Assembly: GCF_022846255.1 (NCBI RefSeq)
Contig: NZ_AP025682.1
Source: Escherichia coli
Lineage (GTDB): Bacteria > Pseudomonadota > Gammaproteobacteria > Enterobacterales > Enterobacteriaceae
DNA: 64,000 bases
Direction: 5' to 3' (one strand)
Numbering within the stretch: the stretch's first letter is position 1; every line of letters starts with the position of its first letter. Of this stretch, positions 20,758 to 64,000 are shown one piece after another. A program made the position numbers and the translations under genes. A model generated the notes under the pieces. That model was not told where the DNA came from. It was given only the letters and a program-made list of their open reading frames with translations, and did not search any database.

Positions 20758-20780
20758 CTCGCATTTGCAGGAATAACGTA

Positions 20781-22669: not shown

Positions 22670-22829
22670 AATCGACTATAATTGCTACTACAGCTCCCCA
22701 CGAAAAAGGTGCGACGTTGTGGATAAGCGGATGGCGATTGCGGAAAGCACCGGAAAACGAAACGAAAAAACCGGAAAACGCCTTTCCCAATTTCTGTGGA
22801 TAACCTGTTCTTAAAAATATGGAGCGATC

Positions 22830-24968
22830 ATGACACCGCATGTGATGAAACGAGACGGCTGCAAAGTGCCGTTTAAATCAGAGCGCATCAAAGAAGCGAT
22901 TCTGCGTGCAGCTAAAGCAGCGGAAGTCGATGATGCCGATTATTGCGCCACTGTTGCTGCGGTTGTCAGCGAGCAGATGCAGGGCCGCAACCAGGTGGAT
23001 ATCAATGAGATCCAGACCGCAGTTGAAAACCAGCTGATGTCGGGGCCATACAAACAACTGGCTCGTGCTTACATCGAGTACCGTCACGATCGCGACATTG
23101 AACGTGAAAAACGCGGTCGCCTGAACCAGGAGATCCGTGGTCTGGTCGAGCAGACCAACTCCTCGTTACTCAACGAAAACGCCAACAAAGACAGCAAGGT
23201 GATTCCAACCCAGCGCGACCTGCTGGCCGGGATCGTGGCTAAACACTATGCACGCCAGCACCTGCTGCCGCGTGACGTGGTGCAGGCACATGAACGTGGT
23301 GATATTCACTATCACGATCTCGATTACTCACCGTTCTTCCCGATGTTCAACTGCATGTTGATCGACCTGAAAGGCATGCTGACCCAGGGCTTTAAAATGG
23401 GGAACGCCGAGATTGAACCGCCGAAATCGATCTCTACGGCAACCGCGGTAACTGCGCAGATTATTGCTCAGGTCGCCAGCCATATTTATGGCGGCACCAC
23501 CATTAACCGTATCGATGAAGTGCTGGCACCGTTTGTCACCGCCAGCTACAACAAACATCGCAAGACCGCAGAAGAGTGGAACATCCCGGACGCCGAAGGC
23601 TACGCTAACTCTCGTACCATCAAAGAGTGCTACGATGCCTTCCAGTCGCTGGAGTACGAAGTAAACACCCTGCACACCGCCAACGGTCAAACACCGTTTG
23701 TGACCTTTGGTTTTGGTCTGGGCACCAGCTGGGAGTCGCGCCTGATTCAGGAATCTATCCTGCGTAACCGTATCGCCGGCCTCGGTAAAAACCGTAAAAC
23801 GGCGGTGTTCCCGAAACTGGTGTTTGCGATTCGCGATGGCCTGAACCATAAAAAAGGCGATCCGAACTACGACATCAAACAGCTGGCGCTGGAGTGCGCA
23901 AGCAAGCGCATGTATCCGGATATCCTTAACTACGATCAGGTAGTGAAAGTCACCGGTTCGTTTAAAACCCCGATGGGCTGCCGCAGCTTCCTCGGCGTGT
24001 GGGAAAATGAAAACGGCGAGCAGATCCACGATGGTCGTAACAACCTCGGCGTGATCAGCCTGAACCTGCCGCGTATTGCTCTGGAAGCAAAAGGCGATGA
24101 AGCCACCTTCTGGAAGCTGCTGGATGAACGTCTGGTGTTGGCACGTAAGGCGCTGATGACCCGTATCGCTCGTCTCGAAGGCGTGAAAGCGCGCGTAGCC
24201 CCGATCCTCTATATGGAAGGCGCTTGTGGCGTGCGTCTGAATGCTGACGACGACGTTTCTGAAATCTTCAAAAACGGTCGTGCGTCTATTTCGCTGGGTT
24301 ACATCGGCATCCACGAAACCATTAACGCGCTGTTCGGCGGCGAGCATGTTTACGACAACGAGCAGCTGCGCGCGAAAGGTATTGCGATTGTTGAGCGTCT
24401 GCGTCAGGCGGTGGATCAGTGGAAAGAAGAAACTGGCTACGGTTTCAGCCTCTACAGTACACCGAGTGAGAACCTGTGCGACCGCTTCTGCCGTCTCGAT
24501 ACCGCTGAGTTTGGCGTGGTGCCGGGCGTGACCGATAAAGGTTACTACACCAACAGTTTCCACCTCGATGTGGAGAAGAAGGTGAACCCGTACGACAAGA
24601 TCGACTTTGAAGCGCCTTACCCGCCACTGGCGAACGGTGGCTTCATTTGCTATGGCGAGTATCCAAACATTCAGCACAACCTGAAGGCGCTGGAAGATGT
24701 CTGGGATTACAGCTATCAGCATGTACCGTATTACGGCACCAACACACCGATCGATGAATGCTACGAGTGTGGCTTTACCGGCGAATTTGAGTGCACCAGC
24801 AAAGGCTTCACTTGTCCGAAATGTGGTAACCATGACACCTCCCGTGTGTCGGTGACTCGCCGCGTGTGCGGATATTTAGGTAGCCCGGATGCACGTCCGT
24901 TTAACGCTGGTAAGCAGGAAGAAGTTAAGCGCCGCGTTAAACATTTGGGAAATGGGCAGATAGGTTAA
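22830..24968 (+). CDS. nrdD: Anaerobic ribonucleoside-triphosphate reductase
   Basis: 712-aa ORF with C-terminal Zn-finger cysteines and glycyl-radical motif RVCGYLG. Confidence 0.95.
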   Translation: MTPHVMKRDGCKVPFKSERIKEAILRAAKAAEVDDADYCATVAAVVSEQMQGRNQVDINEIQTAVENQLMSGPYKQLARAYIEYRHDRDIEREKRGRLNQEIRGLVEQTNSSLLNENANKDSKVIPTQRDLLAGIVAKHYARQHLLPRDVVQAHERGDIHYHDLDYSPFFPMFNCMLIDLKGMLTQGFKMGNAEIEPPKSISTATAVTAQIIAQVASHIYGGTTINRIDEVLAPFVTASYNKHRKTAEEWNIPDAEGYANSRTIKECYDAFQSLEYEVNTLHTANGQTPFVTFGFGLGTSWESRLIQESILRNRIAGLGKNRKTAVFPKLVFAIRDGLNHKKGDPNYDIKQLALECASKRMYPDILNYDQVVKVTGSFKTPMGCRSFLGVWENENGEQIHDGRNNLGVISLNLPRIALEAKGDEATFWKLLDERLVLARKALMTRIARLEGVKARVAPILYMEGACGVRLNADDDVSEIFKNGRASISLGYIGIHETINALFGGEHVYDNEQLRAKGIAIVERLRQAVDQWKEETGYGFSLYSTPSENLCDRFCRLDTAEFGVVPGVTDKGYYTNSFHLDVEKKVNPYDKIDFEAPYPPLANGGFICYGEYPNIQHNLKALEDVWDYSYQHVPYYGTNTPIDECYECGFTGEFECTSKGFTCPKCGNHDTSRVSVTRRVCGYLGSPDARPFNAGKQEEVKRRVKHLGNGQIG

Positions 24969-47186: not shown

Positions 47187-47744
47187 ATGACCCTACGCAA
47201 GATTCTGGCACTCACCTGCCTGCTGTTGCCGATGATGGCTTCCGCACATCAGTTCGAAACCGGTCAGCGAGTGCCGCCGATTGGCATCACCGATCGTGGC
47301 GAGTTGGTGCTTGATAAAGATCAGTTTAGCTACAAAACCTGGAACAGCGCGCAGTTAGTGGGAAAAGTGCGAGTACTGCAACATATTGCTGGTCGCACCT
47401 CTGCAAAAGAGAAAAACGCGACGCTGATTGAAGCGATTAAATCAGCGAAGTTACCGCACGATCGTTACCAGACCACCACCATTGTTAACACCGACGACGC
47501 GATTCCGGGTTCAGGGATGTTTGTGCGCAGCAGTCTGGAGAGTAATAAAAAGCTTTATCCCTGGTCGCAGTTTATTGTTGATAGCAATGGCGTCGCACGC
47601 GGTGCCTGGCAGCTGGATGAAAAAAGTTCCGCTGTAGTGGTGCTGGATAAAGACGGTCGCGTGCAATGGGCCAAAGACGGGGCACTTACTCAGGAAGAGG
47701 TGCAGCAAGTGATGGACCTGCTGCATAAATTAATTAATAAATAG
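47187..47744 (+). CDS. ytfJ: Periplasmic protein YtfJ
   Basis: 185-aa ORF with signal peptide; 3' end overlaps cysQ 3' end by 11 bp. Confidence 0.88.
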
Positions 47745-48663: not shown

Positions 48664-50607
48664 ATGATTAAGTTTAGCGCAACGCTCCTGGCCACGCTGA
48701 TTGCCGCCAGTGTGAATGCAGCGACGGTCGATCTGCGTATCATGGAAACCACTGATCTGCATAGCAACATGATGGATTTCGATTATTACAAAGACACCGC
48801 CACGGAAAAATTCGGACTGGTACGTACGGCAAGCCTGATTAACGATGCCCGCAATGAAGTGAAAAACAGCGTACTGGTCGATAACGGCGATTTGATTCAG
48901 GGGAGTCCGCTGGCAGATTACATGTCGGCGAAAGGATTAAAAGCAGGTGATATTCACCCGGTCTATAAGGCATTAAATACGCTGGACTATACCGTCGGCA
49001 CGCTTGGCAACCACGAGTTTAACTACGGTCTGGATTATCTGAAAAATGCGCTGGCGGGAGCGAAATTCCCTTATGTAAATGCCAACGTCATTGACGCCAG
49101 AACCAAACAGCCAATGTTTACACCGTATTTAATTAAAGACACCGAAGTGGTCGATAAAGACGGAAAAAAACAGACGCTGAAGATTGGTTATATTGGCGTC
49201 GTCCCGCCACAAATCATGGGCTGGGATAAAGCTAATTTATCCGGGAAAGTGACGGTGAATGATATTACCGAAACCGTGCGCAAATACGTGCCTGAAATGC
49301 GCGAGAAAGGTGCCGATGTCGTTGTCGTTCTGGCGCATTCCGGGCTGTCTGCCGATCCGTATAAAGTGATGGCGGAAAACTCAGTTTATTACCTCAGTGA
49401 AATTCCGGGCGTTAACGCCATTATGTTTGGCCATGCTCACGCCGTTTTCCCAGGTAAAGATTTTGCTGATATCGAAGGGGCTGATATCGCGAAAGGCACG
49501 CTGAATGGTGTTCCGGCGGTAATGCCAGGCATGTGGGGCGATCATCTTGGTGTGGTCGACTTACAACTCAGTAATGACAGCGGTAAATGGCAGGTGACGC
49601 AGGCGAAAGCGGAAGCACGGCCGATTTACGACATCGCGAATAAAAAATCCCTCGCGGCGGAAGACAGCAAGCTGGTAGAAACACTCAAAGCCGATCACGA
49701 TGCCACACGCCAGTTCGTCAGCAAGCCAATCGGTAAATCTGCCGACAATATGTATAGCTATCTGGCGCTTGTGCAGGACGATCCGACCGTGCAGGTGGTG
49801 AACAACGCGCAAAAAGCGTATGTCGAGCATTACATTCAGGGCGATCCGGATCTGGCAAAACTGCCAGTGCTTTCAGCTGCCGCACCGTTTAAAGTTGGTG
49901 GTCGCAAAAATGACCCGGCAAGCTATGTGGAGGTGGAAAAAGGCCAGTTGACCTTCCGTAATGCCGCCGATCTTTATCTCTACCCCAATACGCTGATTGT
50001 GGTGAAAGCCAGCGGTAAAGAGGTGAAAGAGTGGCTGGAGTGCTCCGCCGGACAGTTTAACCAGATTGATCCTAACAGCACGAAACCACAGTCACTCATC
50101 AACTGGGATGGTTTCCGCACCTATAACTTTGATGTTATTGATGGTGTGAATTATCAGATTGATGTTACCCAGCCCGCCCGTTATGACGGCGAGTGCCAGA
50201 TGATTAATGCCAATGCGGAAAGGATTAAGAACCTGACCTTTAACGGCAAGCCGATTGATCCGAACGCCATGTTCCTCGTTGCCACCAATAACTATCGCGC
50301 TTACGGCGGCAAATTTGCCGGTACGGGCGACAGCCATATCGCTTTTGCTTCACCGGATGAGAACCGCTCGGTGCTGGCAGCGTGGATTGCTGATGAGTCG
50401 AAACGTGCGGGGGAAATTCACCCGGCGGCAGATAACAACTGGCGTTTAGCACCAATAGCTGGCGATAAGAAACTGGATATCCGTTTCGAAACCTCTCCGT
50501 CAGATAAAGCCGCAGCGTTTATTAAAGAGAAAGGGCAGTATCCGATGAATAAAGTCGCGACCGATGATATCGGGTTTGCGATTTATCAGGTGGATCTGAG
50601 TAAGTAA
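48664..50607 (+). CDS. cpdB: 2',3'-cyclic-nucleotide 2'-phosphodiesterase / 3'-nucleotidase (periplasmic)
   Basis: 647 aa from ATG at 48664; signal peptide; calcineurin-like metallophosphoesterase motifs (GNHEFN). Confidence 0.93.
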
Positions 50608-50620
50608 AACACTTCTTTTT

Positions 50621-50735
50621 CGGCCTACAAATCATCAACCGCATCCGGCATTTATTGGCGGATGCGATGCTGACGCATCTTATCCGCCCTACAAGCCATG
50701 AACCGTAGTCCGGATAAGCGCAGCGCATCCGGCAG
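50621..50735. repeat. REP elements
   Basis: cggcctacaa...gcatccggca, gcggatgcgatgctgacgcatcttatccgccctaca, gtccggataagcgcagcgcatccggca. Confidence 0.75.
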
Positions 50736-51116
50736 TTATGCCGCACGTTCATCCCGCACCGCTAACACCTCGGGCAAATTCAACTCAATCCAGTCCGCCA
50801 GTGCAGCAACCTTTTCGCTCACCTGCTCGCCCAGCGGCGTGAGGCTATATTCCACATGCGGCGGCACCACCGGATACGCGATACGGTTAAGAAAACCATC
50901 CTGCTCTAGCGCCTGTAACGACTGCGCAAGCATCTTTTCACTCACCCCGCCGATTTTGCGCCGCAGGTCGCTAAAGCGATGAGTACCTTCGCGTAGCGCC
51001 ACCAGAATCAACACCCCCCAACGGCTGGTGACGTGTTTCAAAACCTCGCGCGACGGACACTGTTCAGCGAAGAGATTTCCCTCTTTGAGTTGTTGCGACA
51101 GGCTAACCTGACTCAT
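50736..51116 (-). CDS. ytfH: HxlR-family transcriptional regulator YtfH
   Basis: 126 aa from ATG at 51116 (MSQVSLSQQLKEG...); track ORF starts 37 codons upstream. Confidence 0.85.
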   Translation of the reverse strand: MSQVSLSQQLKEGNLFAEQCPSREVLKHVTSRWGVLILVALREGTHRFSDLRRKIGGVSEKMLAQSLQALEQDGFLNRIAYPVVPPHVEYSLTPLGEQVSEKVAALADWIELNLPEVLAVRDERAA

Positions 51117-51139
51117 TTCATACTTACCTTTTTGTATGT

Positions 51140-51156
51140 ACTTACTAAAAGTAAGT
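51140..51156. promoter_or_regulatory. Palindromic candidate operator between divergent ytfH and qorB
   Basis: ACTTACT-aaa-AGTAAGT (7-bp perfect arms); additional tacttac copy at 51121. Confidence 0.4.
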
Positions 51157-51204
51157 TTAAGTGTTAGCGTATTTAAACACAAGACAAAACGATGGAGACT
51201 TCCC

Positions 51205-52065
51205 ATGATCGCTATTACTGGTGCCACTGGCCAACTTGGTCACTATGTTATTGAATCCTTGATGAAAACGGTTCCTGCCAGCCAAATAGTGGCTATCGTT
51301 CGTAATCCGGCAAAAGCACAGGTACTGACAGCACAAGGCATTACCGTGCGTCAGGCTGATTACGGCGATGAAGCCGCACTGACATCTGCGCTTCAGGGAG
51401 TGGAAAAACTACTGCTGATCTCTTCCAGCGAAGTGGGTCAACGTGCCCCGCAGCATCGTAATGTTATTAATGCCGCAAAGGCGGCCGACGTGAAATTTAT
51501 CGCTTATACCAGCCTGCTACATGCCGATTCCTCCCCGCTCGGCCTCGCCGATGAGCACATTGAGACGGAGAAAATGCTGGCTGATTCTGGCATCGTTTAC
51601 ACTCTGCTGCGCAACGGCTGGTACACCGAAAACTACCTCGCCAGCGCCCCGGCAGCACTGGAACACGGCGTATTTATCGGTGCCGCGGGCGATGGCAAAA
51701 TTGCCTCAGCAACGCGGGCTGATTATGCGGTAGCTGCGGCGCGCGTAATTAGCGAAGCCGGTCATGAAGGCAAGGTTTACGAACTGGCGGGCGATAGTGC
51801 CTGGACACTGACACAGTTAGCGGCAGAACTCACCAAACAGAGCGGCAAACCGATTACCTATCAAAACCTGAGCGAAGCCGATTTCGCTGCGGCACTGAAA
51901 AGCGTCGGACTGCCTGATGGACTGGCGGATATGCTGGCGGATTCTGACGTTGGCGCATCGAAAGGCGGTCTGTTTGATGACAGCAAAACGCTTAGCAAAT
52001 TGATTGGCCGCCCAACGACAACGTTAGCCGAAAGCGTAAGCCATCTTTTTAATGTTAATAACTAG
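51205..52065 (+). CDS. qorB: NAD(P)H:quinone oxidoreductase QorB (YtfG), NmrA-like
   Basis: 286 aa from ATG at 51205 (MIAITGATGQLG Rossmann motif). Confidence 0.9.
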   Translation: MIAITGATGQLGHYVIESLMKTVPASQIVAIVRNPAKAQVLTAQGITVRQADYGDEAALTSALQGVEKLLLISSSEVGQRAPQHRNVINAAKAADVKFIAYTSLLHADSSPLGLADEHIETEKMLADSGIVYTLLRNGWYTENYLASAPAALEHGVFIGAAGDGKIASATRADYAVAAARVISEAGHEGKVYELAGDSAWTLTQLAAELTKQSGKPITYQNLSEADFAAALKSVGLPDGLADMLADSDVGASKGGLFDDSKTLSKLIGRPTTTLAESVSHLFNVNN

Positions 52066-52172
52066 TTAATTAAAGTGGCATCCTCCCGCATCCTCTCTGA
52101 TAATGACGGGATGCCGGGAGCAATCATGTCTGCTTCCTGAACTTTCTTCTGACAGACCAATGGATGCCAGTA

Positions 52173-53138
52173 ATGATTAGCGGCGTGCTGTACGCCCTGT
52201 TAGCAGGGTTGATGTGGGGGCTTATTTTTGTCGGGCCGTTGATCGTACCGGAATACCCGGCGATGTTGCAGTCGATGGGGCGTTACCTGGCGCTAGGGTT
52301 AATTGCGCTGCCCATTGCCTGGCTGGGACGCGTGCGTCTGCGTCAGTTGGCGCGTCGCGACTGGCTTACCGCCTTGATGCTCACCATGATGGGCAACCTT
52401 ATCTATTACTTCTGCCTTGCAAGTGCCATTCAACGTACTGGCGCGCCTGTTTCCACGATGATTATCGGCACCCTGCCGGTGGTGATTCCCGTTTTTGCCA
52501 ATCTGCTTTATAGCCAGCGCGACGGCAAACTCGCATGGGGAAAACTCGCCCCGGCACTGGTTTGTATTGGCATCGGCCTGTCGTGTGTGAATATTGCTGA
52601 GTTAAACCACGGACTCCCCGATTTTGACTGGGCACGTTATACCTCAGGCATCGTGCTAGCGTTAGTTTCCGTGGTCTGCTGGGCATGGTATGCCCTGCGC
52701 AACGCCCGCTGGCTGCGGGAAAATCCCGACAAACATCCGATGATGTGGGCGACGGCGCAGGCGCTGGTCACGCTGCCGGTTTCTCTCATCGGCTATCTCG
52801 TCGCCTGTTGCTGGCTGAATATGCAAACGCCGGACTTCTCCTTACCCTTTGGCCCCCGTCCGCTGGTGTTTATTAGTCTGATGGTTGCGATAGCCGTGCT
52901 TTGCTCATGGGTTGGCGCACTCTGCTGGAACGTCGCCAGCCAGAGATTACCGACAGTGATTCTCGGGCCGCTGATTGTTTTCGAAACGCTGGCAGGTTTG
53001 CTGTACACCTTTTTACTCCGCCAGCAAATGCCGCCGCTAATGACGCTGAGCGGTATCGCGCTGTTAGTGATTGGCGTGGTCATCGCGGTCAGAGCAAAAC
53101 CAGAAAAACCTTTAACTGAATCTGTCTCAGAAAGTTGA
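52173..53138 (+). CDS. ytfF: Inner-membrane EamA-like transporter YtfF
   Basis: Polytopic ORF; start placed at ATG 52173 (321 aa); ATG at 52164 is an in-frame alternative. Confidence 0.85.
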   Translation: MISGVLYALLAGLMWGLIFVGPLIVPEYPAMLQSMGRYLALGLIALPIAWLGRVRLRQLARRDWLTALMLTMMGNLIYYFCLASAIQRTGAPVSTMIIGTLPVVIPVFANLLYSQRDGKLAWGKLAPALVCIGIGLSCVNIAELNHGLPDFDWARYTSGIVLALVSVVCWAWYALRNARWLRENPDKHPMMWATAQALVTLPVSLIGYLVACCWLNMQTPDFSLPFGPRPLVFISLMVAIAVLCSWVGALCWNVASQRLPTVILGPLIVFETLAGLLYTFLLRQQMPPLMTLSGIALLVIGVVIAVRAKPEKPLTESVSES

Positions 53139-53245
53139 CACGCTGGCAGTGAGTTAAATAAGCCTCTGCTACGTAAGGGTTATAGCTTTTGCCTTAAAGA
53201 TGCATTTAAAATGCATCTTATCTTATTAAGAATGAGGTATCAGCT

Positions 53246-53908
53246 ATGGCTTATCGCGACCAACCTTTAGGTGAACTGGCGCTCTCTATTCCTCGCGCTT
53301 CGGCTCTGTTTCGTAAATATGATATGGATTACTGCTGTGGCGGTAAGCAGACGCTGGCGCGCGCGGCGGCACGTAAAGAACTGGATGTTGACGTCATTGA
53401 AGCCGAACTGGCAAAGCTTGCTGAACAACCGATTGAGAAAGACTGGCGTAGCGCCCCGCTGGCGGAAATCATCGACCACATTATTGTGCGCTATCACGAT
53501 CGCCATCGCGAGCAGCTGCCGGAGCTGATCCTGCAAGCGACTAAAGTCGAGCGCGTTCACGCCGACAAACCAAGTGTGCCAAAAGGGCTGACAAAATACC
53601 TGACTATGCTGCATGAAGAGCTTTCCAGCCACATGATGAAAGAAGAGCAAATTCTCTTCCCGATGATTAAACAAGGCATGGGCAGCCAGGCAATGGGGCC
53701 AATCAGCGTAATGGAAAGCGAGCACGATGAAGCGGGCGAACTGCTGGAAGTGATCAAACACACCACCAATAACGTCACACCGCCGCCGGAAGCCTGCACC
53801 ACCTGGAAAGCGATGTATAACGGCATTAATGAACTGATTGATGACCTGATGGAGCACATCAGTCTGGAAAACAATGTACTATTCCCGCGCGCGCTGGCGG
53901 GTGAGTGA
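53246..53908 (+). CDS. ytfE: Iron-sulfur cluster repair di-iron protein YtfE (RIC)
   Basis: 220-aa ORF with hemerythrin-like His/Glu motifs. Confidence 0.93.
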
Positions 53909-53915
53909 TCTAAAA

Positions 53916-53940
53916 GCTGGATGGCATTGCGCCATCCAGC
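53916..53940. terminator. Terminator between convergent ytfE and cycA (T-run on minus strand)
   Basis: gctggatggc-attgc-gccatccagc perfect 10-bp stem; AAAA upstream on plus strand. Confidence 0.75.
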
Positions 53941-53952
53941 ATGATAATGCGG

Positions 53953-55365
53953 TTATTTCCGCAGTTCAGCAGCCCGCTTCTTACCAATAAACAGCCAGCC
54001 CAGCCCCAGCGCGATAAACCACAGCGGGGTAACCAGCAGCGCCTGGTGGGTGTCATCTTCCAGTGTCAACAACACCAGAACAAACACAAAGAACGCCATA
54101 CATACCCAGCACATCAGCTTGCCGAGTGGCATCTTGTAGATCGACTTCTCATGCAGATGAGGACGCTGTTTGCGATACACCAGGTACGAGCAAAGGATAA
54201 TCGTCCAGACAAACATAAACAGAATCGCGGAAACGGTTGTAATCATCGTGAACGCGCCAATCACGCTGGGATTCACATACAACATCACCACGCCGCCGAG
54301 CAGACAGATACAAGAGAAGGTCAGCCCTTTCGCGGGTACTGCGCGCTTAGAGAGTTTAGCGAACGCTTTCGGTGCCACACCTTCCTGGGCCAGGCCAAAC
54401 AGCATACGGCTGGTAGAGAAGACACCGCTGTTAGCGGAAGACGCCGCAGAGGTCAGCACCACAAAGTTGATCACGCTGGCAGCCGCAGGCAAACCTACCA
54501 ACACAAACAGTTCAACGAACGGGCTTTTCTCCGGGACTACCGAACTCCACGGCGTCACGGACATAATCACAATCAGCGAGAAGACGTAGAACATAATGAT
54601 ACGGATCGGAATGGAGTTAATCGCGCGTGGCAGTGATTTCTCCGGATCTTTGGTTTCCGCAGCTGTTGTACCTACCAGCTCAATCCCCACGAAAGCGAAA
54701 ACCGCTATCTGGAATCCGGCAAAGAAGCCGCTTAAGCCTTTCGGGAACCAGCCGCCGTCATTCCACAAATGTGTAAATGATGCTTCCACACCGGTCGGTG
54801 ACTGAAAGTGCATCGCCACCATGACCAGGCCGACAACAATCAGCGACACGATGGCGACGATTTTGATCATCGCAAACCAGAACTCCATCTCACCGAACAT
54901 TTTTACCGTGGCGAGGTTTAGAACCAGTAACAGAATGATCACGGATAACGAAGCAACCCAGTCAGAAAGCCCAGGGAACCAGAATTGCGCATAGGCGGTA
55001 ATGGCAACCACATCTGCCATACCGGTTACAACCCAGCAGAACCAGTAAGTCCAGCCGGTGAAATATCCTGCCCACGGCCCGAGTAAATCGGAAGCGAAGT
55101 CACTAAAAGATTTGTATTCCAGATTCGAAAGCAGCAATTCCCCCATTGCCCGCATCACGAAAAAGAGCATAAAACCGATGATCATATAAACGAAAATGAT
55201 CGACGGCCCGGCAAGGCTAATCGTTTTGCCGGACCCCATAAACAACCCTGTACCAATGGCACCGCCAATGGCAATAAGCTGAATATGTCGGTTTGTGAGA
55301 TTGCGCCGTAGCGACTGTTCAGCCGGAGCCTGATCATCGGCAACGACTTTTACCTGATCTACCAT
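53953..55365 (-). CDS. cycA: D-serine/D-alanine/glycine:H+ symporter (APC family)
   Basis: 470-aa 12-TM amino-acid permease ORF. Confidence 0.94.
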   Translation of the reverse strand: MVDQVKVVADDQAPAEQSLRRNLTNRHIQLIAIGGAIGTGLFMGSGKTISLAGPSIIFVYMIIGFMLFFVMRAMGELLLSNLEYKSFSDFASDLLGPWAGYFTGWTYWFCWVVTGMADVVAITAYAQFWFPGLSDWVASLSVIILLLVLNLATVKMFGEMEFWFAMIKIVAIVSLIVVGLVMVAMHFQSPTGVEASFTHLWNDGGWFPKGLSGFFAGFQIAVFAFVGIELVGTTAAETKDPEKSLPRAINSIPIRIIMFYVFSLIVIMSVTPWSSVVPEKSPFVELFVLVGLPAAASVINFVVLTSAASSANSGVFSTSRMLFGLAQEGVAPKAFAKLSKRAVPAKGLTFSCICLLGGVVMLYVNPSVIGAFTMITTVSAILFMFVWTIILCSYLVYRKQRPHLHEKSIYKMPLGKLMCWVCMAFFVFVLVLLTLEDDTHQALLVTPLWFIALGLGWLFIGKKRAAELRK

Positions 55366-55673
55366 GTTTTTTTCTTCCTGTACCTGTCTGTGTTGTTCAG
55401 GCTCTACGGCCTTTAGTCAGTCTATGATACGACGAATCTGTATCGGGACTCATCGATATTAGGTAACAATACGCGGGATGAATACTAAGATTTAGATCTA
55501 ATGTTAATTTTATGTTTAAAGTGAGTGTCATATCACGGTGATAACGCGAAACAGCTCACAAAAATACACGCTTACAGGGGCTTTGCAACATAAAATAGCG
55601 CCGTTTGGCAAACTGAAGGGTTTATTGCTGAATGCCTGCTCCCCTCTGGTTCGAGGGGAACAGAATGCGCTGC

Positions 55674-56294
55674 TTAGAGGATTTCCAGCAGTTCGACTTC
55701 AAACACCAGGGTGCTGAACGGAGGGATGGACGCGCCTGCGCCACGCTCGCCATATGCCAGTTCCTGCGGGATAGTCAGTTCCCATTTAGAACCTACCGGC
55801 ATCAGAGTCAGTGCTTCAATCCAGCCAGGGATCACGCCGTTAACCGGGAATTCAGCTGGCTCGCCGCGAGCAACGGAGCTGTCAAACACGGTGCCGTCGA
55901 TCAGTTTTCCGGTGTAATGAACACGAACGCGGTCGGTACGTGCCGGAATTGCGCCTTCGCCCTGGTTGATCACGCGGAATTGCAGGCCAGATTCGGTGCT
56001 ATTTACACCTTCTTTTTTGGCGTTTTCTTCCAGGTATTTCACACCTTCAGCAGCCATCGCCTGGAAACGCTGACGACGAACGGCATCGGCGCGTTCGTGG
56101 ATTTCACGCAGCGCGCGGTGCACCACATCAACCGGAACAGCCGGATGTTTGCCTTCCAGCGCATCGGCAATGCCTGCAACCAGAGCTTCTGGCAGCAGCC
56201 CTTCCAGGCCAGATTCACTCAGTTGTTGCCCTACCTGCAAACCAATGCCGTAGCTTGCTTGCGCTTCGATGGTGTCAAAAGTTGGGGTGGTCAT
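55674..56294 (-). CDS. fklB: FKBP-type peptidyl-prolyl cis-trans isomerase FklB
   Basis: 206 aa from ATG at 56294 ([12 protein letters not shown]...); track ORF extends 53 codons upstream. Confidence 0.92.
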
Positions 56295-56511
56295 CGTATT
56301 TCCTTTCTTAGGGTATAAAGTAGCGGGCAGCATATCAGCCACACTTCTTTGGGTAAAACTTTGTCGCGGGAATGATGACAAATCCCGGGGAAAAAGAAAC
56401 AATAGCAATATCCCGTATGAATATAATAAAGGCGGGTTTACCACGGACATCATAGCGTTAGCTTATTCATAGGCTATGATTGAGGAACAAGACGCGGAGC
56501 AGGAGGAAACC

Positions 56512-57150
56512 ATGCCCGGGCGCTTTGAACTAAAACCAACCCTGGAGAAAGTCTGGCACGCGCCGGACAATTTTCGCTTCATGGACCCGCTGCCGCCGAT
56601 GCATCGTCGGGGGATCATTATTGCCGCCATTGTATTGGTGGTCGGATTTCTGCTTCCATCTGATGATACGCCCAACGCGCCGGTGGTGACGCGTGAAGCG
56701 CAGTTAGATATTCAGTCGCAATCACAACCACCGACAGAAGAACAGCTGCGGGCGCAATTAGTCACGCCACAAAATGATCCTGATCAGGTGGCTCCGGTCG
56801 CTCCAGAACCAATACAGGAAGGCCAACCAGAAGAGCAGCCGCAAACCACCCATACGCAACCATTCCAGCCAGATAGCGGAATTGATAATCAATGGCGCTC
56901 CTATCGTGTCGAACCCGGTAAAACGATGGCGCAGCTGTTCCGCGACCACGGACTGCCCGCTACCGATGTCTATGCCATGGCGCAGGTAGAAGGCGCGGAT
57001 AAGCCACTGAGTAATTTGCAAAACGGGCAGATGGTGAAAATCCGCCAGAACGCCAGCGGCGTGGTGACGGGCTTAACCATTGATACGGGGAATAATCAAC
57101 AGGTCCTGTTTACCCGCCAGCCGGATGGCAGTTTTATTCGCGCGCGGTAG
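56512..57150 (+). CDS. ytfB: Cell-division/peptidoglycan-associated protein YtfB (OapA-like, Pro/Gln-rich linker)
   Basis: 212 aa from ATG at 56512 with AGGAGGA RBS. Confidence 0.9.
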
Positions 57151-57781
57151 ATGAAGGGTCAACCAAAAGCCAGCTAAGGATCGTCTCTTTGATGACCTTA
57201 CGTCTGGCTTCCAGTGCCTGCGGTGAAACCATACTGATGTGATAAACCAGACCAAGCGTATGCTGGTTGATCAAATAATATCCCCCAAGCGCAGCAATAT
57301 TAATATTCACCTGCAATGGGTCGATATCTGGCTTAAAAATATTGTTTTTCTTCCCTTCATCCAATAAGGATTCCATTAACTGCAAGTGCGCATGGTTAAT
57401 TTCTAAAAGACGCTGTGACTTTGCATAATGCACACCCTTACTTTGATTTTCACTATGCACAATTTTTAAAAACCAGGGATTAGAAATATAATAATCCCAT
57501 GTAAAATCGATTATTTTCTCAATGGCTTTCTGTGGCGGAAGATCTGAGAAATCAAGGGCCTTTTCTTTTTGTCGAATATCGTTCCAGGTATATTCCAGTA
57601 CTTCGATAAATAAATTTTCTTTATTACCAAAGTGGTGATAAACCGTCTGTTTACTGCACCCCGCGGCCTTGACGATATTATCGACTCTGGCCCCTTCGTA
57701 ACCATATTCGGCAAATTCATTAACCGCGCATAACAGCAGCTTTTCTTTCAGGCTCTGTACGTTGCTGGTATCAAGATACAT
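57134..57781 (-). CDS. TetR-family transcriptional regulator (accessory)
   Basis: 215 aa from ATG at 57781 (ORF extends to 57853); Tet[45 protein letters not shown]; ~40% GC. Confidence 0.8.
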
Positions 57782-57903
57782 AACGCTTCCCCACGACCTC
57801 TTCGTGGTGACTATCATAACCTGATTTGATTTCAGCTTCAGAAAAAAGGGCAAAAACTTGTACTTTCATCAGGTTATCAAATGTCCTGTGATCGCCATCG
57901 CAT

Positions 57904-57925
57904 ATCAACCAACTAGATGGTTGAT
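57904..57925. promoter_or_regulatory. Perfect palindrome, candidate operator of the TetR-controlled divergon
   Basis: ATCAACCA-actaga-TGGTTGAT, 8-bp perfect arms, ~70 bp upstream of the SDR gene ATG. Confidence 0.45.
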
Positions 57926-57993
57926 CTTTTTATCCTCCAGTCGCAAGCTAATCATCACTAAGGAAACAAAATTCAAAAAAAGAGAGCTATTGT

Positions 57994-58785
57994 ATGAAAT
58001 CCACTCGTCCTGTTGCCGTGATTACCGGAGCCGCACGTGGTATTGGAAAGGGCTGTGCGCTGGAGCTTGCGCGTGGCGGATTTAATCTGCTGATTAATGA
58101 TCGTCCGGATGCGGATAGCGTAGAAAAATTACATGCCACACAACAAGAATGTCTGGCGGAAGGCGTGGAAGTGATTTGCTTCCCTGCTGATGTGGGCGAT
58201 CTCTCCCTGCATGAAGAGATGCTCGACGCAGCGCAAAACCAGTGGGGACGTCTGGACTGCCTGCTCAACAACGCAGGCATTTCAGTGAAAAAACGCGGTG
58301 ACCTTCTCGACCTCGAACCAGACAGCTTCGACCAAAATATTGCCATTAACACCCGCGCACCGTTCTTCCTTGCTCAGGCATTCAGTAAGCGCTTACTGGC
58401 ACAGCCGAAACCGGAAGCAGAACTGCCGCACCGCTCGATTATTTTCGTCAGTTCCATCAACGCCATCATGCTGGCGATGAATCGCGGCGAATATACCATT
58501 GCCAAAACTGCCGTCTCTGCCGCTGCTCGTCTGTTTGCTGCTCGCCTTTGTAATGAACAAATTGGCGTATATGAAGTGCGTCCTGGTCTCATCAAAACCG
58601 ATATGACTATTCCGGCAACGGCCTATTACGACGAACTGATTGCCAAAGGTCTGGTGCCGTGGGGACGTTGGGGTTATCCGGCTGATATTGCTTCCACTGT
58701 CCGCGCGATGGCGGAAGGTAAACTGATTTACACCTGTGGTCAGGCGGTCGCCATCGACGGCGGCTTAAGTATGCCGCGCTTCTGA
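57994..58785 (+). CDS. Short-chain dehydrogenase/reductase (SDR) family oxidoreductase
   Basis: 263-aa ORF; TGAARGIG cofactor motif and YxxxK catalytic motif (YTIAK). Confidence 0.85.
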   Translation: MKSTRPVAVITGAARGIGKGCALELARGGFNLLINDRPDADSVEKLHATQQECLAEGVEVICFPADVGDLSLHEEMLDAAQNQWGRLDCLLNNAGISVKKRGDLLDLEPDSFDQNIAINTRAPFFLAQAFSKRLLAQPKPEAELPHRSIIFVSSINAIMLAMNRGEYTIAKTAVSAAARLFAARLCNEQIGVYEVRPGLIKTDMTIPATAYYDELIAKGLVPWGRWGYPADIASTVRAMAEGKLIYTCGQAVAIDGGLSMPRF

Positions 58786-58794
58786 GGCTGAATC

Positions 58795-59637
58795 ATGAGA
58801 GATCTGTTACAACGCCCGGATTTATTCAGTATCAATACCGCGACACTGGGCTATAAAACGCCGCTGCCCGCCATTATTGATGCCTGCGCCGCACGCGGTA
58901 TTGGCGCCATTGCCCCCTGGCGCAGGGAGTTGCAGGGTGAAGATCTCCAGCAAATCGCCCGCCAGCTTGCTGCCAGTAACATAAACGTTTCCGGTTTGTG
59001 CCGTAGCACCTACTACACCGCACCGACGCTGGCGGAGCGCAAACTGGTGATTGACGATAACCGCCGGGCGCTGGACGACGCCGCTGTACTGAACGCCGCC
59101 TGTTATATGCAGGTGGTTGGCGGTCTGCCAATGGGAACAAAAGATCTGTACGAAGCACGGGAACAAGTGAAACAAGGGATTCGCCAGTTGCTGCCACATT
59201 CGAAAGAGGTCGGCGTGCCAATTGCACTGGAGCCACTGCACCCGATGACTGCTGCCGATCGTTCTTGTCTGTGCACGTTACGTCAGGCGCTGGACTGGTG
59301 TGATGAACTCGATCCCGATGGCGAATTTGGCCTCGGCGTGGCGGTAGATGTCTACCATGTCTGGTGGGACCCGGATCTCGCCAGTCAGATCCTGCGTGCC
59401 GGAAAACGCATCCTCGCGTTTCATGTTTCCGACTGGTTAGTGCCGACCACCGATCTGGTCAATGACCGTGGAATGCCGGGAGATGGTGTCATCAATATTC
59501 CGTCAATTCGTCGGCTGGTTGAAAACGCCGGATTTAATGGCGCTATTGAACTGGAAATATTCTCACCGTACTGGTGGCAGAAAGATATTAACAGCACGCT
59601 GGATATTAGCGTCGATCGCATCGCACATTATTGTTAA
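58795..59637 (+). CDS. Xylose-isomerase-like TIM-barrel protein (sugar-phosphate isomerase/epimerase family)
   Basis: 280-aa ORF, 9-nt spacing from upstream gene; family assignment from overall sequence character, moderate certainty. Confidence 0.65.
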   Translation: MRDLLQRPDLFSINTATLGYKTPLPAIIDACAARGIGAIAPWRRELQGEDLQQIARQLAASNINVSGLCRSTYYTAPTLAERKLVIDDNRRALDDAAVLNAACYMQVVGGLPMGTKDLYEAREQVKQGIRQLLPHSKEVGVPIALEPLHPMTAADRSCLCTLRQALDWCDELDPDGEFGLGVAVDVYHVWWDPDLASQILRAGKRILAFHVSDWLVPTTDLVNDRGMPGDGVINIPSIRRLVENAGFNGAIELEIFSPYWWQKDINSTLDISVDRIAHYC

Positions 59638-59646
59638 GGAATAATC

Positions 59647-60423
59647 ATGAGTGACCAACCCGTTCTGTTCAGCAGAGCGGCGGCTTCTTGCCGCCTGACA
59701 TTGAACCGTGAAGATAAATGTCATGCTATTAATGAAGAAATGATCGAATCTCTCGACCATTATTTAAATGAAATTGAAAATGACACGGCATTACGCTTAG
59801 TCGAATTAACGGCAACCGGCGATAAATTCTTTTGTGCGGGCGGCGATATTAAATCGTGGTCGGCCTATTCGCCATTAGATATGGGCAGAAAATGGATTAA
59901 ACGCGGTAATGACGTTTTTAATCGCCTGCGCAACTTACCCCAATTAACCGTTGCGAATCTCAACGGTCATACCATCGGTGGCGGTATTGAACTTGCCTTG
60001 TGCTGCGATATTCGTATCGCTCGCCCCGGCGCGAAATTCTCTAACCCGGAAGTGATGCTCGGCATGGTGCCAGGCTGGATGGGCATTGAGCGAGTGCTTA
60101 ATCAGGTTGGTCCTGTGGTCGGTCGCCAGATGCTGATGCTGGGTAAACGCCTGACGGCGCAGGAAGCTCAGACAGCGAATTTAATTGATGAAGTGGTAGA
60201 AAAAGAACAGGTGGAAAGCTGGATGGCGAACCAGTTAGCGCAGCTGGAAAAATGTGGTCCGGTGGCACTGGCACATATTAAGCAACTGATTCTGGCGCTG
60301 GAAAATAAACACGCCGATTACTCCCACCAGTTACTGGCTGGATTAATGTCCGCCACTCAGGATTGCCAACAGGCGACGCACGCATTTGCCGAAAAAGCCG
60401 GCGTGAGCTTCCACAATCAATAA
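59647..60423 (+). CDS. Enoyl-CoA hydratase/isomerase (crotonase) family protein
   Basis: 258-aa ORF with crotonase motifs FFCAGGDI and GHTIGGGIELAL. Confidence 0.8.
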   Translation: MSDQPVLFSRAAASCRLTLNREDKCHAINEEMIESLDHYLNEIENDTALRLVELTATGDKFFCAGGDIKSWSAYSPLDMGRKWIKRGNDVFNRLRNLPQLTVANLNGHTIGGGIELALCCDIRIARPGAKFSNPEVMLGMVPGWMGIERVLNQVGPVVGRQMLMLGKRLTAQEAQTANLIDEVVEKEQVESWMANQLAQLEKCGPVALAHIKQLILALENKHADYSHQLLAGLMSATQDCQQATHAFAEKAGVSFHNQ

Positions 60424-60432
60424 GGAAATTGT

Positions 60433-61974
60433 ATGCGTAAGTTATCAACCGCCGAGACACTGGCGGCGCAAATTCAGGACGGCGCAACCATTGCCATTAG
60501 CGGCAACGGCGGCGGTATGGTGGAAGCTGACCATATTCTGGCCGCCATTGAAGCGCGCTTTCTGCAAACCGGACACCCGCGCGATCTGACATTAATCCAC
60601 TCGCTGGGTATTGGCGATCGCGACAGCAAAGGCACTAACCGTTTTGCTCACGCCGAAATGCTCAAACGCATTATTGCCGGACATTTTACCTGGTCGCCCA
60701 AGATGCAGGAACTGGTGAAAAGCAATGCTATTGAAGCCTACTGTTTCCCTGGTGGCGTAATTCAGGCACTGCTGCGGGAGATCGGTGCCGGACGTCCGGG
60801 GCTTTTTACCCACGTTGGGCTGGGATCGTTTGTTGATCCACGCAATGGTGGCGGTAAGTCGAATGAATGCACTACCGACGACCTGGTAGAACTGATTGAA
60901 ATCGACGGTGAGACCAAACTTCGTTATCGCCCTTTCAAAGTGGACTACGCGATTTTGCGCGGCACCTATGCCGATCCGCGTGGCAACGTCAGCCTCGAAG
61001 AAGAGGCGATTGATATGGATAGCTATTCGATGGCGCTGGCAGCACACAACAGCGGCGGCAAAGTGTTCGTACAGGTCCGCGATGTGCTGGAAGCAGGTAC
61101 CATTGAACCACGTCGGGTCAAACTACCAGGAATTCTGGTCGATGGCATCGTTGAGCACCGCGAACAACCGCAAACCTATCTTGGTGGTTACGACCTGACG
61201 ATCAGCGGTCAACATCGCCGTCTAAGTTCTAACGACGCTATTGAACTGGTTAGTCATCCGGTGCGTCGCCTGATTGCCCGTCGGGCAGCGCGGGAACTGG
61301 TGGCAGGCGCTTCAACCAACTTTGGCTTTGGTATTCCCGGCGGTATTCCTGGGGTTGCACTGCGCGAAGGCGTGCCTTATCAAAGTTTGTGGCTGAGTGT
61401 AGAACAGGGTGTACATAACGGCATGATGCTGGATGATGCTCTGTTCGGCTGCGCCCGTAACGCCGATGCCATTATTCCATCACTCGATCAATTCGAATTC
61501 TACAGTGGCGGCGGTATCGATATCACCTTCCTCGGCATGGGAGAGATGGATCGGTACGGTAACGTCAACGTATCCCATCTCAATGGCAATCTCATTGGCC
61601 CCGGCGGCTTCCTCGAAATTGCGCAAAACGCCCGTAAAGTGGTGTTCTGCGGTACGTTTGACGCCAAAGGCAGCAAGATTGATGTAACGCCTGATGGCCT
61701 GCATATCGCCCAGTCAGGTCAAATCCCCAAACTGGTTACCCAGGTGGAAAAAATTACTTTTAGCGCCGCATACGCACAGCAAAGCAGTCAGGAAGTGCTG
61801 TATATCACCGAACGTGCGGTATTCCAGTTAACGGCAGAAGGCGTTGAATTAATTGAGATCGCCCCTGGCGTAGAGATTGACCGCGACATTCTGCCGTATA
61901 TGGCCTTCCGTCCGATTATCAGGCACCCACGCCTGATGGAAAGTAGCCTGTTTACGCCAATGGAGGATGCATGA
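60433..61974 (+). CDS. Fused alpha/beta family-I CoA-transferase (acyl-CoA:acetate/3-ketoacid type, YdiF/Pct-like)
   Basis: 513-aa ORF; N-terminal DGATIAISGNGGG motif typical of family-I CoA-transferases. Confidence 0.7.
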   Translation: MRKLSTAETLAAQIQDGATIAISGNGGGMVEADHILAAIEARFLQTGHPRDLTLIHSLGIGDRDSKGTNRFAHAEMLKRIIAGHFTWSPKMQELVKSNAIEAYCFPGGVIQALLREIGAGRPGLFTHVGLGSFVDPRNGGGKSNECTTDDLVELIEIDGETKLRYRPFKVDYAILRGTYADPRGNVSLEEEAIDMDSYSMALAAHNSGGKVFVQVRDVLEAGTIEPRRVKLPGILVDGIVEHREQPQTYLGGYDLTISGQHRRLSSNDAIELVSHPVRRLIARRAARELVAGASTNFGFGIPGGIPGVALREGVPYQSLWLSVEQGVHNGMMLDDALFGCARNADAIIPSLDQFEFYSGGGIDITFLGMGEMDRYGNVNVSHLNGNLIGPGGFLEIAQNARKVVFCGTFDAKGSKIDVTPDGLHIAQSGQIPKLVTQVEKITFSAAYAQQSSQEVLYITERAVFQLTAEGVELIEIAPGVEIDRDILPYMAFRPIIRHPRLMESSLFTPMEDA

Positions 61975-64000
61975 GTCAGCTTGATGAGGCCATCCTTGAT
62001 GCACTGACACACGTTACTTTCCCAAAGGGTTTTGCACAGGCAGAACCCGCATGGGTTGTCACGGTAGACGGTGTTGATTACCCACTCTGGAAAACAGATG
62101 CCCTGGTAGTCGGCAGTGGTGCAGCCGGGCTACGTGCAGCTGTGGAACTTAAACGCCGCCAGCAAAATGTGTTAATCGCCACCGCCGGGTTATATATGGG
62201 GACATCGGCATGTTCTGGCTCTGATAAACAAACACTGTTTACCGCCGCTACCGCGGGCAACGGCGACAACTTCGCCAAACTGGCAGAGGCACTGGCGAGC
62301 GGTGGGGCGATGGATCACGACACCGCTTATGTTGAAGCGGTAGGTTCTCTGCACACTCTTGGCGGGTTGCAATATCTTGGTCTGGAATTACCGGAAGATC
62401 GCTATGGCGCGATTCTTCGTTATCAAACCGACCATGACGAAGCCGGGCGTGCAACCTCGTGTGGGCCGCGTACCTCAAGGTTAATGGTGAAAGTGCTGCT
62501 GGAAGAAGTACAGCGTCTTGCTATCCCAATGTTGGCCAGTGCAACAGTGATTAAACTGCTGCATCAGCGTGACGAAAACGGTGAAGACCGTGTGGCGGGG
62601 GCAATCCTCGCGACCGGTCATCGCGCCCATAACCCATGGGGGCTGGCAATTGTGACTGCGCCCAATGTGGTACTGGCAACAGGCGGGCCTGGCGAGCTTT
62701 ATCGCGACAGTGTGTATCCACACAAATGTTTCGGCTCGCTGGGGCTGGCGCTGGAGGAAGGTCTGACGTTAACGAATCTGACTGAAAGCCAGTTTGGTAT
62801 AGGCACACCGCGCAGCACGTTTCCGTGGAATTTGTCCGGCACCTATGTACAGGTGATCCCATATATCTATTCCGTGGATGCCGGGGGCAACGAGTATAAC
62901 TTCCTCGCGGATTACTATCGCACCACCCAGGAGCTGGCTTCAAACATTTTCCGTAAAGGCTATCAGTGGCCGTTCCACGCCACGCGGGTAATGGATTTTG
63001 GCTCCAGCTTGTTAGATATGGCAGTAGCGCAAGAGCAGCAACATGGTCGTCAGGTATTTATGGATTTCAATCGTAATCCAGAACCTGTGCCGGGTGACCT
63101 ACCGTTCTCATTAGATCGACTGGACGACGACGTTCGCGCGTATCTGGAAAATAACGACGCTCTGGCACCATCGCCCATCGAACGCCTGCAACAAATGAAT
63201 CCTCTGTCTATCTCGCTGTATAAGATGCACGGTTACGATCTCATCACGCAGCCATTGCAGTTTGCCATGAATAATCAGCACATGAATGGCGGCATTGAAG
63301 TCGATATCTGGGGACAAACATCTCTGCCCGGTTGTTTTGCGGTGGGGGAAGTTGCTGGCACACACGGCGTCACCCGACCTGGCGGCGCGGCGTTGAATGC
63401 CGGGCAGGTTTTTGCTGTTCGTCTGGCGCGCTTTATTGGTTGCACGCAAAAGCGGAATATTGATGGAGATATTGCACAGCTGGCAGCTCCGGCACTGGCT
63501 TCTATAAGAGAGATCATTACTCAGGCGCACGATAACGGGTCCGGGATGCCGTTGTCGGTTGTGAGAGAAAAAATTCAGGCACGAATGTCTGACTATGCGG
63601 GATTTATTTGCCATGCCGATAAAGTCCGACGTGCCACTCGTGATGCCCTGCTATTGAACGAATTTGTCCAACGACATGGATTGGCAATCAAACATGTGGG
63701 TGAAGTTGCCGAGCTGTTTATGTGGCGGCATATGGCGCTGACTTCTGCCGCGGTATTAACACAATTAACGCATTATATTGATGCTGGTGGTGGTAGCCGT
63801 GGGGCGCGTATGGTTATTGATCCACAAGGCAAATGCCTACCACAAACTCGTCGCGGCGCAAAAGAAGAATGGCGTTTTCGCTCTGAACTCGCTGAAGACA
63901 AAAATCACAAATTAACAATTCAATATTCGCAAGGTTCTTTTATTACCGAAGTAAAGTCTTTACGTATGCAACCGTGTATTAACGGTATTTACTTTGAAAA
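61971..64000 (+). CDS. FAD-dependent oxidoreductase of the fumarate reductase / succinate dehydrogenase / L-aspartate oxidase flavoprotein superfamily; 3'-truncated by window edge
   Basis: Open frame from ATG 61971 (ATGA overlap with upstream stop) with no stop to 64000 (>=676 codons, hand-translated; not in supplied track); GxGxxG (ALVVGSGAAGL) and GEVAGTHGVTRPGGAALNAG motif. Confidence 0.75.
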   Translation, partial: MSQLDEAILDALTHVTFPKGFAQAEPAWVVTVDGVDYPLWKTDALVVGSGAAGLRAAVELKRRQQNVLIATAGLYMGTSACSGSDKQTLFTAATAGNGDNFAKLAEALASGGAMDHDTAYVEAVGSLHTLGGLQYLGLELPEDRYGAILRYQTDHDEAGRATSCGPRTSRLMVKVLLEEVQRLAIPMLASATVIKLLHQRDENGEDRVAGAILATGHRAHNPWGLAIVTAPNVVLATGGPGELYRDSVYPHKCFGSLGLALEEGLTLTNLTESQFGIGTPRSTFPWNLSGTYVQVIPYIYSVDAGGNEYNFLADYYRTTQELASNIFRKGYQWPFHATRVMDFGSSLLDMAVAQEQQHGRQVFMDFNRNPEPVPGDLPFSLDRLDDDVRAYLENNDALAPSPIERLQQMNPLSISLYKMHGYDLITQPLQFAMNNQHMNGGIEVDIWGQTSLPGCFAVGEVAGTHGVTRPGGAALNAGQVFAVRLARFIGCTQKRNIDGDIAQLAAPALASIREIITQAHDNGSGMPLSVVREKIQARMSDYAGFICHADKVRRATRDALLLNEFVQRHGLAIKHVGEVAELFMWRHMALTSAAVLTQLTHYIDAGGGSRGARMVIDPQGKCLPQTRRGAKEEWRFRSELAEDKNHKLTIQYSQGSFITEVKSLRMQPCINGIYFE

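Follow-up and report, generated by a model that had tools for sequence, protein, structure and literature searches.

When an AT-rich regulator gene overlaps a core gene at the edge of an operon that varies among strains, should the junction be regarded as a seam left by horizontal transfer? This question is raised by a stretch of 64,000 nucleotides of Escherichia coli DNA, analysed here as a whole and referred to as the window, in which the core gene ytfB (56512..57150, plus strand), encoding a LysM/OapA-domain cell-division protein, converges on a TetR/AcrR-family regulator gene, designated tetR (57134..57781, minus strand), the two coding sequences sharing 17 bp at their 3' ends (57134..57150). 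On its other side, tetR is divergent from an operon of six genes. A first-pass annotation of this DNA had proposed that the regulator and the operon have different origins, and that remodelling has occurred at the junction with the core. The comparative evidence described below suggests instead that regulator and operon together make up a single old module at ytfB-rplI, which predates the split of Escherichia, Salmonella, Citrobacter and Klebsiella, in which the low GC content of the regulator is intrinsic, and of which K-12 carries a derived state; we assign to this reading a probability of about 0.85.

The tetR reading frame, which runs from an ATG start to a TAA stop, encodes a protein of 215 amino acids. 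Residues 19-61 match the Pfam domain TetR_N (PF00440; E 1.9e-14, 53.6 bits vs a cut-off of 24), residues 83-201 match TetR_C_29 (E 4.2e-30), and the AF2 model, with a pLDDT of 91.7, contains 11 helices. A Foldseek search with this model yielded 215 PDB matches at E<=0.001, and all 50 of the 50 matches listed are TetR-family or TetR-like regulators. The protein possesses the N-terminal helix-turn-helix domain and the all-helical C-terminal ligand-binding/dimerisation domain by which members of the TetR family (TFTRs) are recognised, and by domain architecture and fold it is a canonical TetR-family regulator. The best structural match is 3npi, an uncharacterised protein, with RutR next, and the full-length matches in both sequence and fold include 3vpr, 5gp9, 3whb and 4w97, at 18-22% identity. 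Two specific identities were considered and set aside: that of a Bacillus-type FadR, for which the NCBIfam equivalog NF053878 scores 47.4 bits, far short of its cut-off of 200, and that of KstR2, whose PDB entries 4w97 and 4w1u match only at E 1.5e-5 and 19% identity. A Pfam domain search revealed no steroid-degradation genes in the operon; 'KstR2' is the label that some sources attach to the Salmonella ortholog of this protein. Assignment of an effector from the matches was rejected as well, uncharacterised TFTRs, RutR, PfmR, FadR and KstR2 all lying at similarly low identity. Neither TetR nor YtfB matched any of the PADLOC defence models.

The operon that faces tetR begins with a short-chain dehydrogenase (SDR) gene, annotated as encoding a 3-ketoacyl-ACP reductase (57994..58785). 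This is followed, also on the plus strand, by genes for a xylose-isomerase-like TIM-barrel protein recognised through Pfam (58795..59637), an enoyl-CoA hydratase/isomerase family protein (ECH; 59647..60423), a YdiF-like family-I CoA transferase (60433..61974; PDB 2ahu, YdiF, E 5e-114) and a FrdA/NadB-like FAD-binding oxidoreductase (61971..64000), which is cut by the window end and has 690 amino acids in the near-identical genome N1420. The sixth product is an organic-anion transporter, either an MFS protein of the anion:cation-symporter type or a TRAP transporter. The closest solved structures of the TIM-barrel protein are 3qc0 and 3ju2 (SMc04130), both of unknown function, and the flavoprotein has no close relative among solved structures. 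Taken together, the enzymes suggest that an imported organic acid is activated and processed in a manner resembling beta-oxidation. A literature search found no paper characterising the operon, and yielded nothing useful on SMc04130 or 7VPF either; the pathway may have been missed so far because K-12 has deleted the operon.

The estimate in the first-pass annotation that tetR, at about 40% GC, is AT-richer than both the operon and the core genes proved accurate. The gene has 40.6% GC (GC3 about 43.5%), vs 49-55% for the operon (SDR 53.3%, TIM barrel 54.8%, ECH 49.3%, CoA transferase 53.8%) and 52-56% for core genes (ytfB 55.4%, fklB 56.4%, cycA 51.6%), the value for the whole 64-kb window being 51.3%. 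The low-GC patch consists of tetR and the divergent promoter region, an intergenic stretch of 212 bp with 39.2% GC. Among all 648-bp segments of the 64 kb, tetR lies at the 4th percentile (z = -2.2), a dip that is genuine yet not extreme. Elsewhere in the same window, an open reading frame at 8400..10052 has 32% GC.

To find the source of this dip, each protein was back-translated with the synonymous codon usage of the surrounding genes, which provides the GC content expected from amino acids. The expected value is 44.7% for tetR vs about 50-56% for its neighbours and, because it is already this low, approximately two thirds of the GC deficit can be ascribed to amino-acid composition. TetR is rich in K, N, I and Y and poor in G, A, R and P; residues of the FYMINK group make up 32% of the protein vs 24% in the neighbours, and those of the GARP group 17% vs 28%. 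The synonymous share of the deficit amounts to -3.9 points (GC3 0.437 vs an expected 0.523). The codon-usage log-likelihood of tetR, -1.07 per codon, falls within the range of its neighbours (-0.89 to -1.24); hipB, located downstream in a related genome, has a value of -1.37 and looks foreign by this measure. The idea of a recent genomic island was therefore rejected on grounds of composition, since AT-richness is limited to tetR and its promoter region, the operon resembles the core in GC content, and codon usage is unremarkable.

The regulator and its operon were also followed beyond E. coli. Close homologs of TetR, at 77-89% identity, are encoded in Salmonella, Citrobacter, Klebsiella, Lelliottia, Entomohabitans and Leminorella; this taxonomic breadth was obtained from a separate search of the encoding contigs, a narrow peptide-pattern scan of the genome collection having recovered 10 loci and missed Salmonella. 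In 11 of the 11 non-E. coli loci examined, which represent at least four genomic contexts, a divergent tetR is accompanied by the same six-gene operon. The pair is located at ytfB-rplI in E. albertii, E. whittamii, further Escherichia sp., Salmonella, Citrobacter, K. spallanzanii and Entomohabitans, and at other sites in Leminorella, on a metagenomic contig and at a second Salmonella locus, where TetR is 59-63% identical. The argument for a recent island from absence in sister species was thus also discarded, the operon being present at ytfB-rplI there. Furthermore, tetR, ytfB and the SDR gene diverge in parallel: their DNA identities to the window are, in this order, 90.7, 91.1 and 88.4% in E. 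albertii, 83.0, 76.4 and 85.4% in Citrobacter, and 79.6, 78.9 and 81.8% in Salmonella. Such parallel divergence, together with the conserved pairing, argues for a long co-descent of ytfB, tetR and the operon. The GC contrast is found in every host as well, with 35-43% for tetR vs 48-60% for the operon, the regulator lying 10-20 points lower; AT-richness would hence appear to be a stable intrinsic trait of tetR, and no mark of separate acquisition.

A different origin of the low GC content could be selection, with the AT-rich tract of tetR and its promoter acting as a platform for H-NS binding or silencing, or harbouring internal promoters, and so keeping the operon off without inducer. It would be in line with this that the GC3 of tetR does not track host GC in Klebsiella and Entomohabitans; in K. 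spallanzanii, GC3 is 0.63-0.72 in the operon and just 0.46 in tetR. In addition, a genomic SELEX survey listed the yjfZ-ytfA spacer of K-12 among H-NS sites, with binding of RNA polymerase there (PMC3946193), and a 10/12 sigma-70-like site lies antisense within tetR (57465..57492). However, protein composition accounts for most of the GC deficit, the number of promoter-like matches (5) is within the expectation from shuffles (3.3 ± 1.6), and, in K-12, the H-NS site may be part of the yjfZ segment, which has 40% GC. The same contrast is moreover displayed by acrR (45.4% GC vs 54% for acrAB) and envR (44.2% vs 52% for acrEF), the genes of the two best-known TetR regulators of E. coli, which makes an explanation specific to this locus unneeded. 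Maintenance of the low GC content by selection is consequently considered unlikely; for the low GC3 of tetR in high-GC Klebsiella, which amino acids explain in part, selection or some other cause could play a role.

The ancient-module reading must also account for the overlap. The ytfB frame has its first in-frame ATG at 56476 and its TAG stop at 57148-57150, and the RefSeq start in a 100%-identical genome is equivalent to 56512; the tetR stop codon does lie 17 bp inside the 3' end of ytfB, as had been described. The overlap has a constant length of 17 bp in nine taxa; it is shared by E. albertii, E. whittamii, Salmonella, Citrobacter and K. spallanzanii, and also by the ytfA remnant of K-12. 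Across these nine taxa the YtfB tail, GSFIRAR, is invariant and that of TetR variable (TARE, TAHE, TARG, IWRE, IGRE), all substitutions in the overlap being synonymous for ytfB and non-synonymous for tetR. In the window, protein alignment places a C-terminal TetR tail that is not conserved, comprising DPSSTARE and the stop codon, at 57134..57160 (minus strand), beyond the end of TetR_C_29 at residue 201; its final five residues have a pLDDT of 48, and the end of the tail is predicted to be disordered. TetR homologs that do not overlap ytfB have 207-209 amino acids and end directly past the conserved SWLL motif, while the overlapping forms carry 6-7 additional residues past the SWLL end, a tail that appears to be unconstrained.

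These features would be explained most simply by a single ancient event, in which tetR would have lost its own stop codon and spacer and come to read 6-7 codons into the antisense of the ytfB end. The tetR stop is the reverse complement of a Phe-Ile codon boundary in ytfB, TTT-A giving TAA, where TTC-A would give TGA, and because these Phe-Ile codons are conserved, the end position of tetR is fixed and the length of the overlap frozen. After the loss of the stop, the coding constraint on ytfB would thus have set the overlap length, and the TetR tail would have been left to drift. The direction of the event, from short to overlapping TetR, is inferred from few taxa. In Entomohabitans, which has the same gene order, ytfB and tetR are separated by a gap of 15 bp, and in a divergent M1-type allele of E. 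coli the two genes abut, with 0 bp between them. The earlier suggestion of a remodelled core junction may therefore be retained for deep time only, and does not hold for recent time, the same 17-bp overlap being present in other genera and in K-12. Convergent overlaps are not rare in this window, a second one, of 11 bp, occurring between ytfJ and cysQ (47734..47744).

It could be argued that the overlap is itself functional, convergent transcription of ytfB and tetR without a terminator coupling the two genes via interference or antisense RNA. The identical length across four genera would agree with such a role, as would the absence of a canonical intrinsic terminator from the junction in a terminator scan, and the presence of a stable hairpin right inside tetR, in its 3' coding part (57167..57210; fold z-score -2.6 vs shuffles). 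The coding constraint on ytfB nevertheless fully accounts for the conservation, Phe-Ile codons setting the tetR stop, and the overlap is missing from Entomohabitans and the M1-type allele, which have the same order. In addition, the tetR promoter is gone in K-12-type strains, for which, to our knowledge, no ytfB defect has been described, and the hairpin is lost in distant homologs. As a conserved RNA element or terminator this hairpin was rejected, the stem being broken in Leminorella and at loci L012 and L013; the stem tracks the codons for EARR/SWLL, which are conserved. Rfam, searched over 55300..58300 with a permissive cut-off, gave no matches. A functional overlap is thus held to be very improbable.

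The nature of the K-12 allele bears on what is variable at this locus. As the first-pass annotation had stated, K-12 carries a short TetR-like remnant: ytfA of MG1655 is a 402-bp pseudogene (4427694..4428095), comprising the C-terminal 133 codons and overlapping ytfB (4428079..4428717) by 17 bp. K-12 aligns collinearly to 57134..57534 at ~97% identity, at the same locus and with the same ytfB junction, and the gene at 57134..57781 can be regarded, on this sequence evidence, as the intact, full-length ortholog of the pseudogene. In RefSeq, the intact gene bears the annotation of a TetR/AcrR regulator and K-12 ytfA that of a pseudogene, and ytfA has been listed as a TFTR in only some E. coli, and in all examined strains of E. 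albertii and E. fergusonii (PMC6790063).

The arrangement in K-12 is not that of the window. K-12-type genomes lack the segment 57535..58082, which contains the 5' third of tetR, all of the promoter/operator region and ~90 nt at the start of the SDR gene, and they also lack most of the operon, the order being ytfB, the 3' ~400 bp of tetR, a decayed 102-bp SDR piece, yjfZ and rplI. The boundary that varies among strains is accordingly not the ytfB/tetR overlap but a point within tetR, near 57535. In strain STEC367, the complete operon precedes yjfZ and rplI, which looks like an intermediate; because of this arrangement, K-12 ytfA is best read as an internal deletion derivative of an STEC367-like combination of operon and yjfZ. 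In the intact allele, the sequence GTGGCGGA flanks the deleted segment (57532-57539 and 58073-58080); as evidence of deletion, this microhomology was set aside as weak and merely compatible, repeats of 8-9 nt being abundant by chance (27 families in 2 kb). What is foreign in composition at this locus is the yjfZ segment, which is specific to K-12 and has 40% GC and a GC3 of 0.37. O157:H7-type genomes carry an IS609 insertion in the tetR remnant, at a site equivalent to 57241, and IS609 is confined to these derived O157-type remnants.

Both states are frequent. In a survey of 5426 complete E. coli genomes, a ytfB-tetR-SDR query found matches in 5415, and at least 80% of the query in 3141; the segment 57537..58082, spanning the 5' end of tetR, the promoter region and the 5' end of the SDR gene, is present in 3142. 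An intact tetR is found in 58% of these genomes and the K-12 deletion junction in 41% (2227/5426). The gene yjfZ, which has reportedly been proposed as an E. coli-wide marker, was found in only 2539 of the 5426.

Against this background, the acquisition of an AT-rich tetR from a lower-GC donor, separately from the operon and with the ytfB/tetR junction as a recently remodelled core/accessory boundary, is the least probable of the alternatives and scarcely credible: it could draw on the 12-14 GC points by which tetR lies under its neighbours and on the polymorphism of the locus in E. coli, where K-12 is devoid of the operon, but the pairing and the GC contrast are kept across genera and genomic contexts, tetR, ytfB and the SDR gene have diverged together, the codon usage of tetR is not atypical, Salmonella, Citrobacter, Klebsiella and K-12 share an identical overlap, the polymorphic breakpoint is inside tetR, and the left junction shows neither tRNA, nor integrase, nor flanking repeat. 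With regard to the latter, no tRNA genes were found in 50000..64000, and no integrase or flanking direct repeats beyond chance-level short repeats at the left junction, where mobility signatures were checked, the right operon junction falling outside the window. The claim of separate origins is thus undone by the comparative evidence, and not by uniform GC, which is not seen across the region, or by identity with K-12.

The divergent promoter region between tetR and the operon, which is 83-90% identical among E. coli alleles, contains a 22-bp palindrome, ATCAACCA-ACTAGA-TGGTTGAT (57904..57925; in full, ATCAACCAACTAGATGGTTGAT), located 69 bp upstream of the SDR start codon and present as a single copy in the window. 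Its core, AACCAAC..TGGTTG, is invariant in 9/9 homologous intergenic regions, including those of loci at which TetR is only 59-63% identical, and this conservation and its position make it a likely TetR operator. The palindrome is also terminator-like, being the only intergenic match of a terminator pattern scan. Adjoining it is a CRP-like site, TGTGATCGCCATCGCA (57887..57902, plus strand), whose position is conserved across homologs; one CRP-like match was found in the window where ~1.7 are expected by chance, the match alone not being significant, and the site is treated as a lead only. In the mechanism that can be proposed, a TetR dimer would bind the candidate operator and repress the operon, activation of the operon would depend on CRP, and TetR would be released by the organic-acid substrate of the operon or by the CoA ester of this substrate.

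Two further suggestions are put forward tentatively, with the odds somewhat against them: that the operon encodes an uncharacterised CoA-transferase-dependent organic-acid pathway, conserved among enteric genera and probably controlled by CRP and by YtfA via the 22-bp palindrome, and, separately, that the ytfB-tetR block has been exchanged between lineages. As to the latter, in ~355 E. coli genomes the ytfB-tetR block is just 75-82% identical to the standard allele, a divergence as great as that from another genus, and on this account inter-lineage replacement of the block may have occurred. Selection on the adhesion-related YtfB could drive such exchange, with tetR hitch-hiking.

The feature is in itself ordinary, both the gene and the polymorphism of its locus being known, and largely annotated already. 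The analysis adds four things to this: it identifies K-12 as derived, accounts for the age of the overlap and for its cause, traces the GC contrast to its source and puts forward a candidate operator. More generally, a seam left by horizontal transfer need not be read from a GC dip and a gene overlap next to an operon that varies among strains; in the present case, both the AT-rich regulator and the overlap that it forms with a core gene predate the genus, and it is the model strain, K-12, that represents the deleted state. The K-12 pseudogene ytfA also gains a putative ancestral role, as the repressor of a six-gene CoA-dependent catabolic operon. The practical value of these observations is modest, and includes the supply of a candidate operator sequence.

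Comparison with known systems places the gene as follows. K-12 ytfA (b4205) consists of orthologous DNA and has the same 17-bp overlap with ytfB, but differs from the tetR of the window in being without the helix-turn-helix domain, the promoter region and the target operon, and in comprising 133 of the 215 codons. FadR/YsiA of Bacillus, PfmR of Thermus and KstR2 of Mycobacterium are acyl-CoA-responsive regulators that control CoA-dependent catabolic genes; all three turned up as full-length matches of the window TetR in sequence and fold, although their similarity to it is low, at 18-22% identity. Finally, AcrR with acrAB and EnvR with acrEF resemble the present pair in that TetR-family repressors are divergent from their targets, and in that the regulator lies 7-9 GC points below the operon; the targets of AcrR and EnvR are efflux pumps, whereas tetR faces catabolic enzymes here, and with a larger GC gap, of 12-14 points.

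In genomes of the K-12 type, the two remnants that lie next to each other at this locus have decayed unequally: the piece of the SDR gene, 102 bp in length (positions 7066..7167 of the K-12-type locus, aligned to window 58083..58184), shows only 79-81% identity to any intact E. coli allele, while the adjoining tetR remnant is 97-99% identical. This tetR remnant also retains a sigma-70-like site, TTTAAA-16-TATAAT (10/12), which in the window occupies 57465..57492 (+), antisense within tetR and directed at the operon; the site may be a mere by-product of AT-richness.

A second form of the junction is found in approximately 355 complete E. coli genomes, whose ytfB-tetR block shares just 75-82% identity with the standard allele. 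In E. coli M1 the block covers locus positions 11000..12520, the equivalent of window ~56300..57950, and its ytfB and tetR genes abut without overlapping. The flanking genes, fklB and the SDR gene, are 95-99% identical, and the block itself is about equally distant from Salmonella, Citrobacter, and Klebsiella. The M1-type block looks like a homologous replacement of approximately 1.6 kb, with an unsampled lineage as the donor.

The last part of the operon exists in two versions, an MFS transporter (window type, Salmonella, and Citrobacter; 19661..20938 in the near-identical genome N1420) versus a three-gene TRAP transporter (JS316 and M1; 18598..21442 in compared locus L005). The two versions differ from window ~63811 onward, a switch point that falls within the 3' end of the gene for the FAD protein. 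In N1420, a frameshifted hipA and a hipB-like gene (21081..22844) lie between the MFS gene and rplI, in a part of the locus that the window, ending at 64000, does not reach; no other gene of the locus departs as far from typical codon usage as this hipB, whose GC3 is 0.37. The gene yjfZ (7332..8126 in the K-12-type locus; 9169..9964 in compared locus L029), which in some strains, such as STEC367, is located between the operon and rplI, has a GC of 42% and a GC3 of 0.37. It has been put forward as a qPCR marker for all E. coli/Shigella (PMC11057252), but was detected here in only 2539 of the 5426 complete E. coli genomes.

Elsewhere, additional genes, hypothetical or with a DKNYY domain, are inserted between ytfE and cycA in some E. 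coli genomes (7756..9353 in N1420; 965..3646 in compared locus L028); the window lacks them. AT-richness in the window peaks in a 550-aa ORF at 8400..10052 (-), which adjoins argI (7324..8328) and has a GC of 32%, a GC3 of 0.29, and no Pfam match. Convergent overlap of core genes recurs within the window, where ytfJ (+) and cysQ (-) share 11 bp (47734..47744). A second TetR-family gene, at 10772..11365 (-), encodes 197 aa with a TetR_N domain and is divergent from an SDR gene; its GC of 49.8% indicates that AT-richness is not general to the TFTR genes of the window, and the pair is probably bdcR/bdcA.
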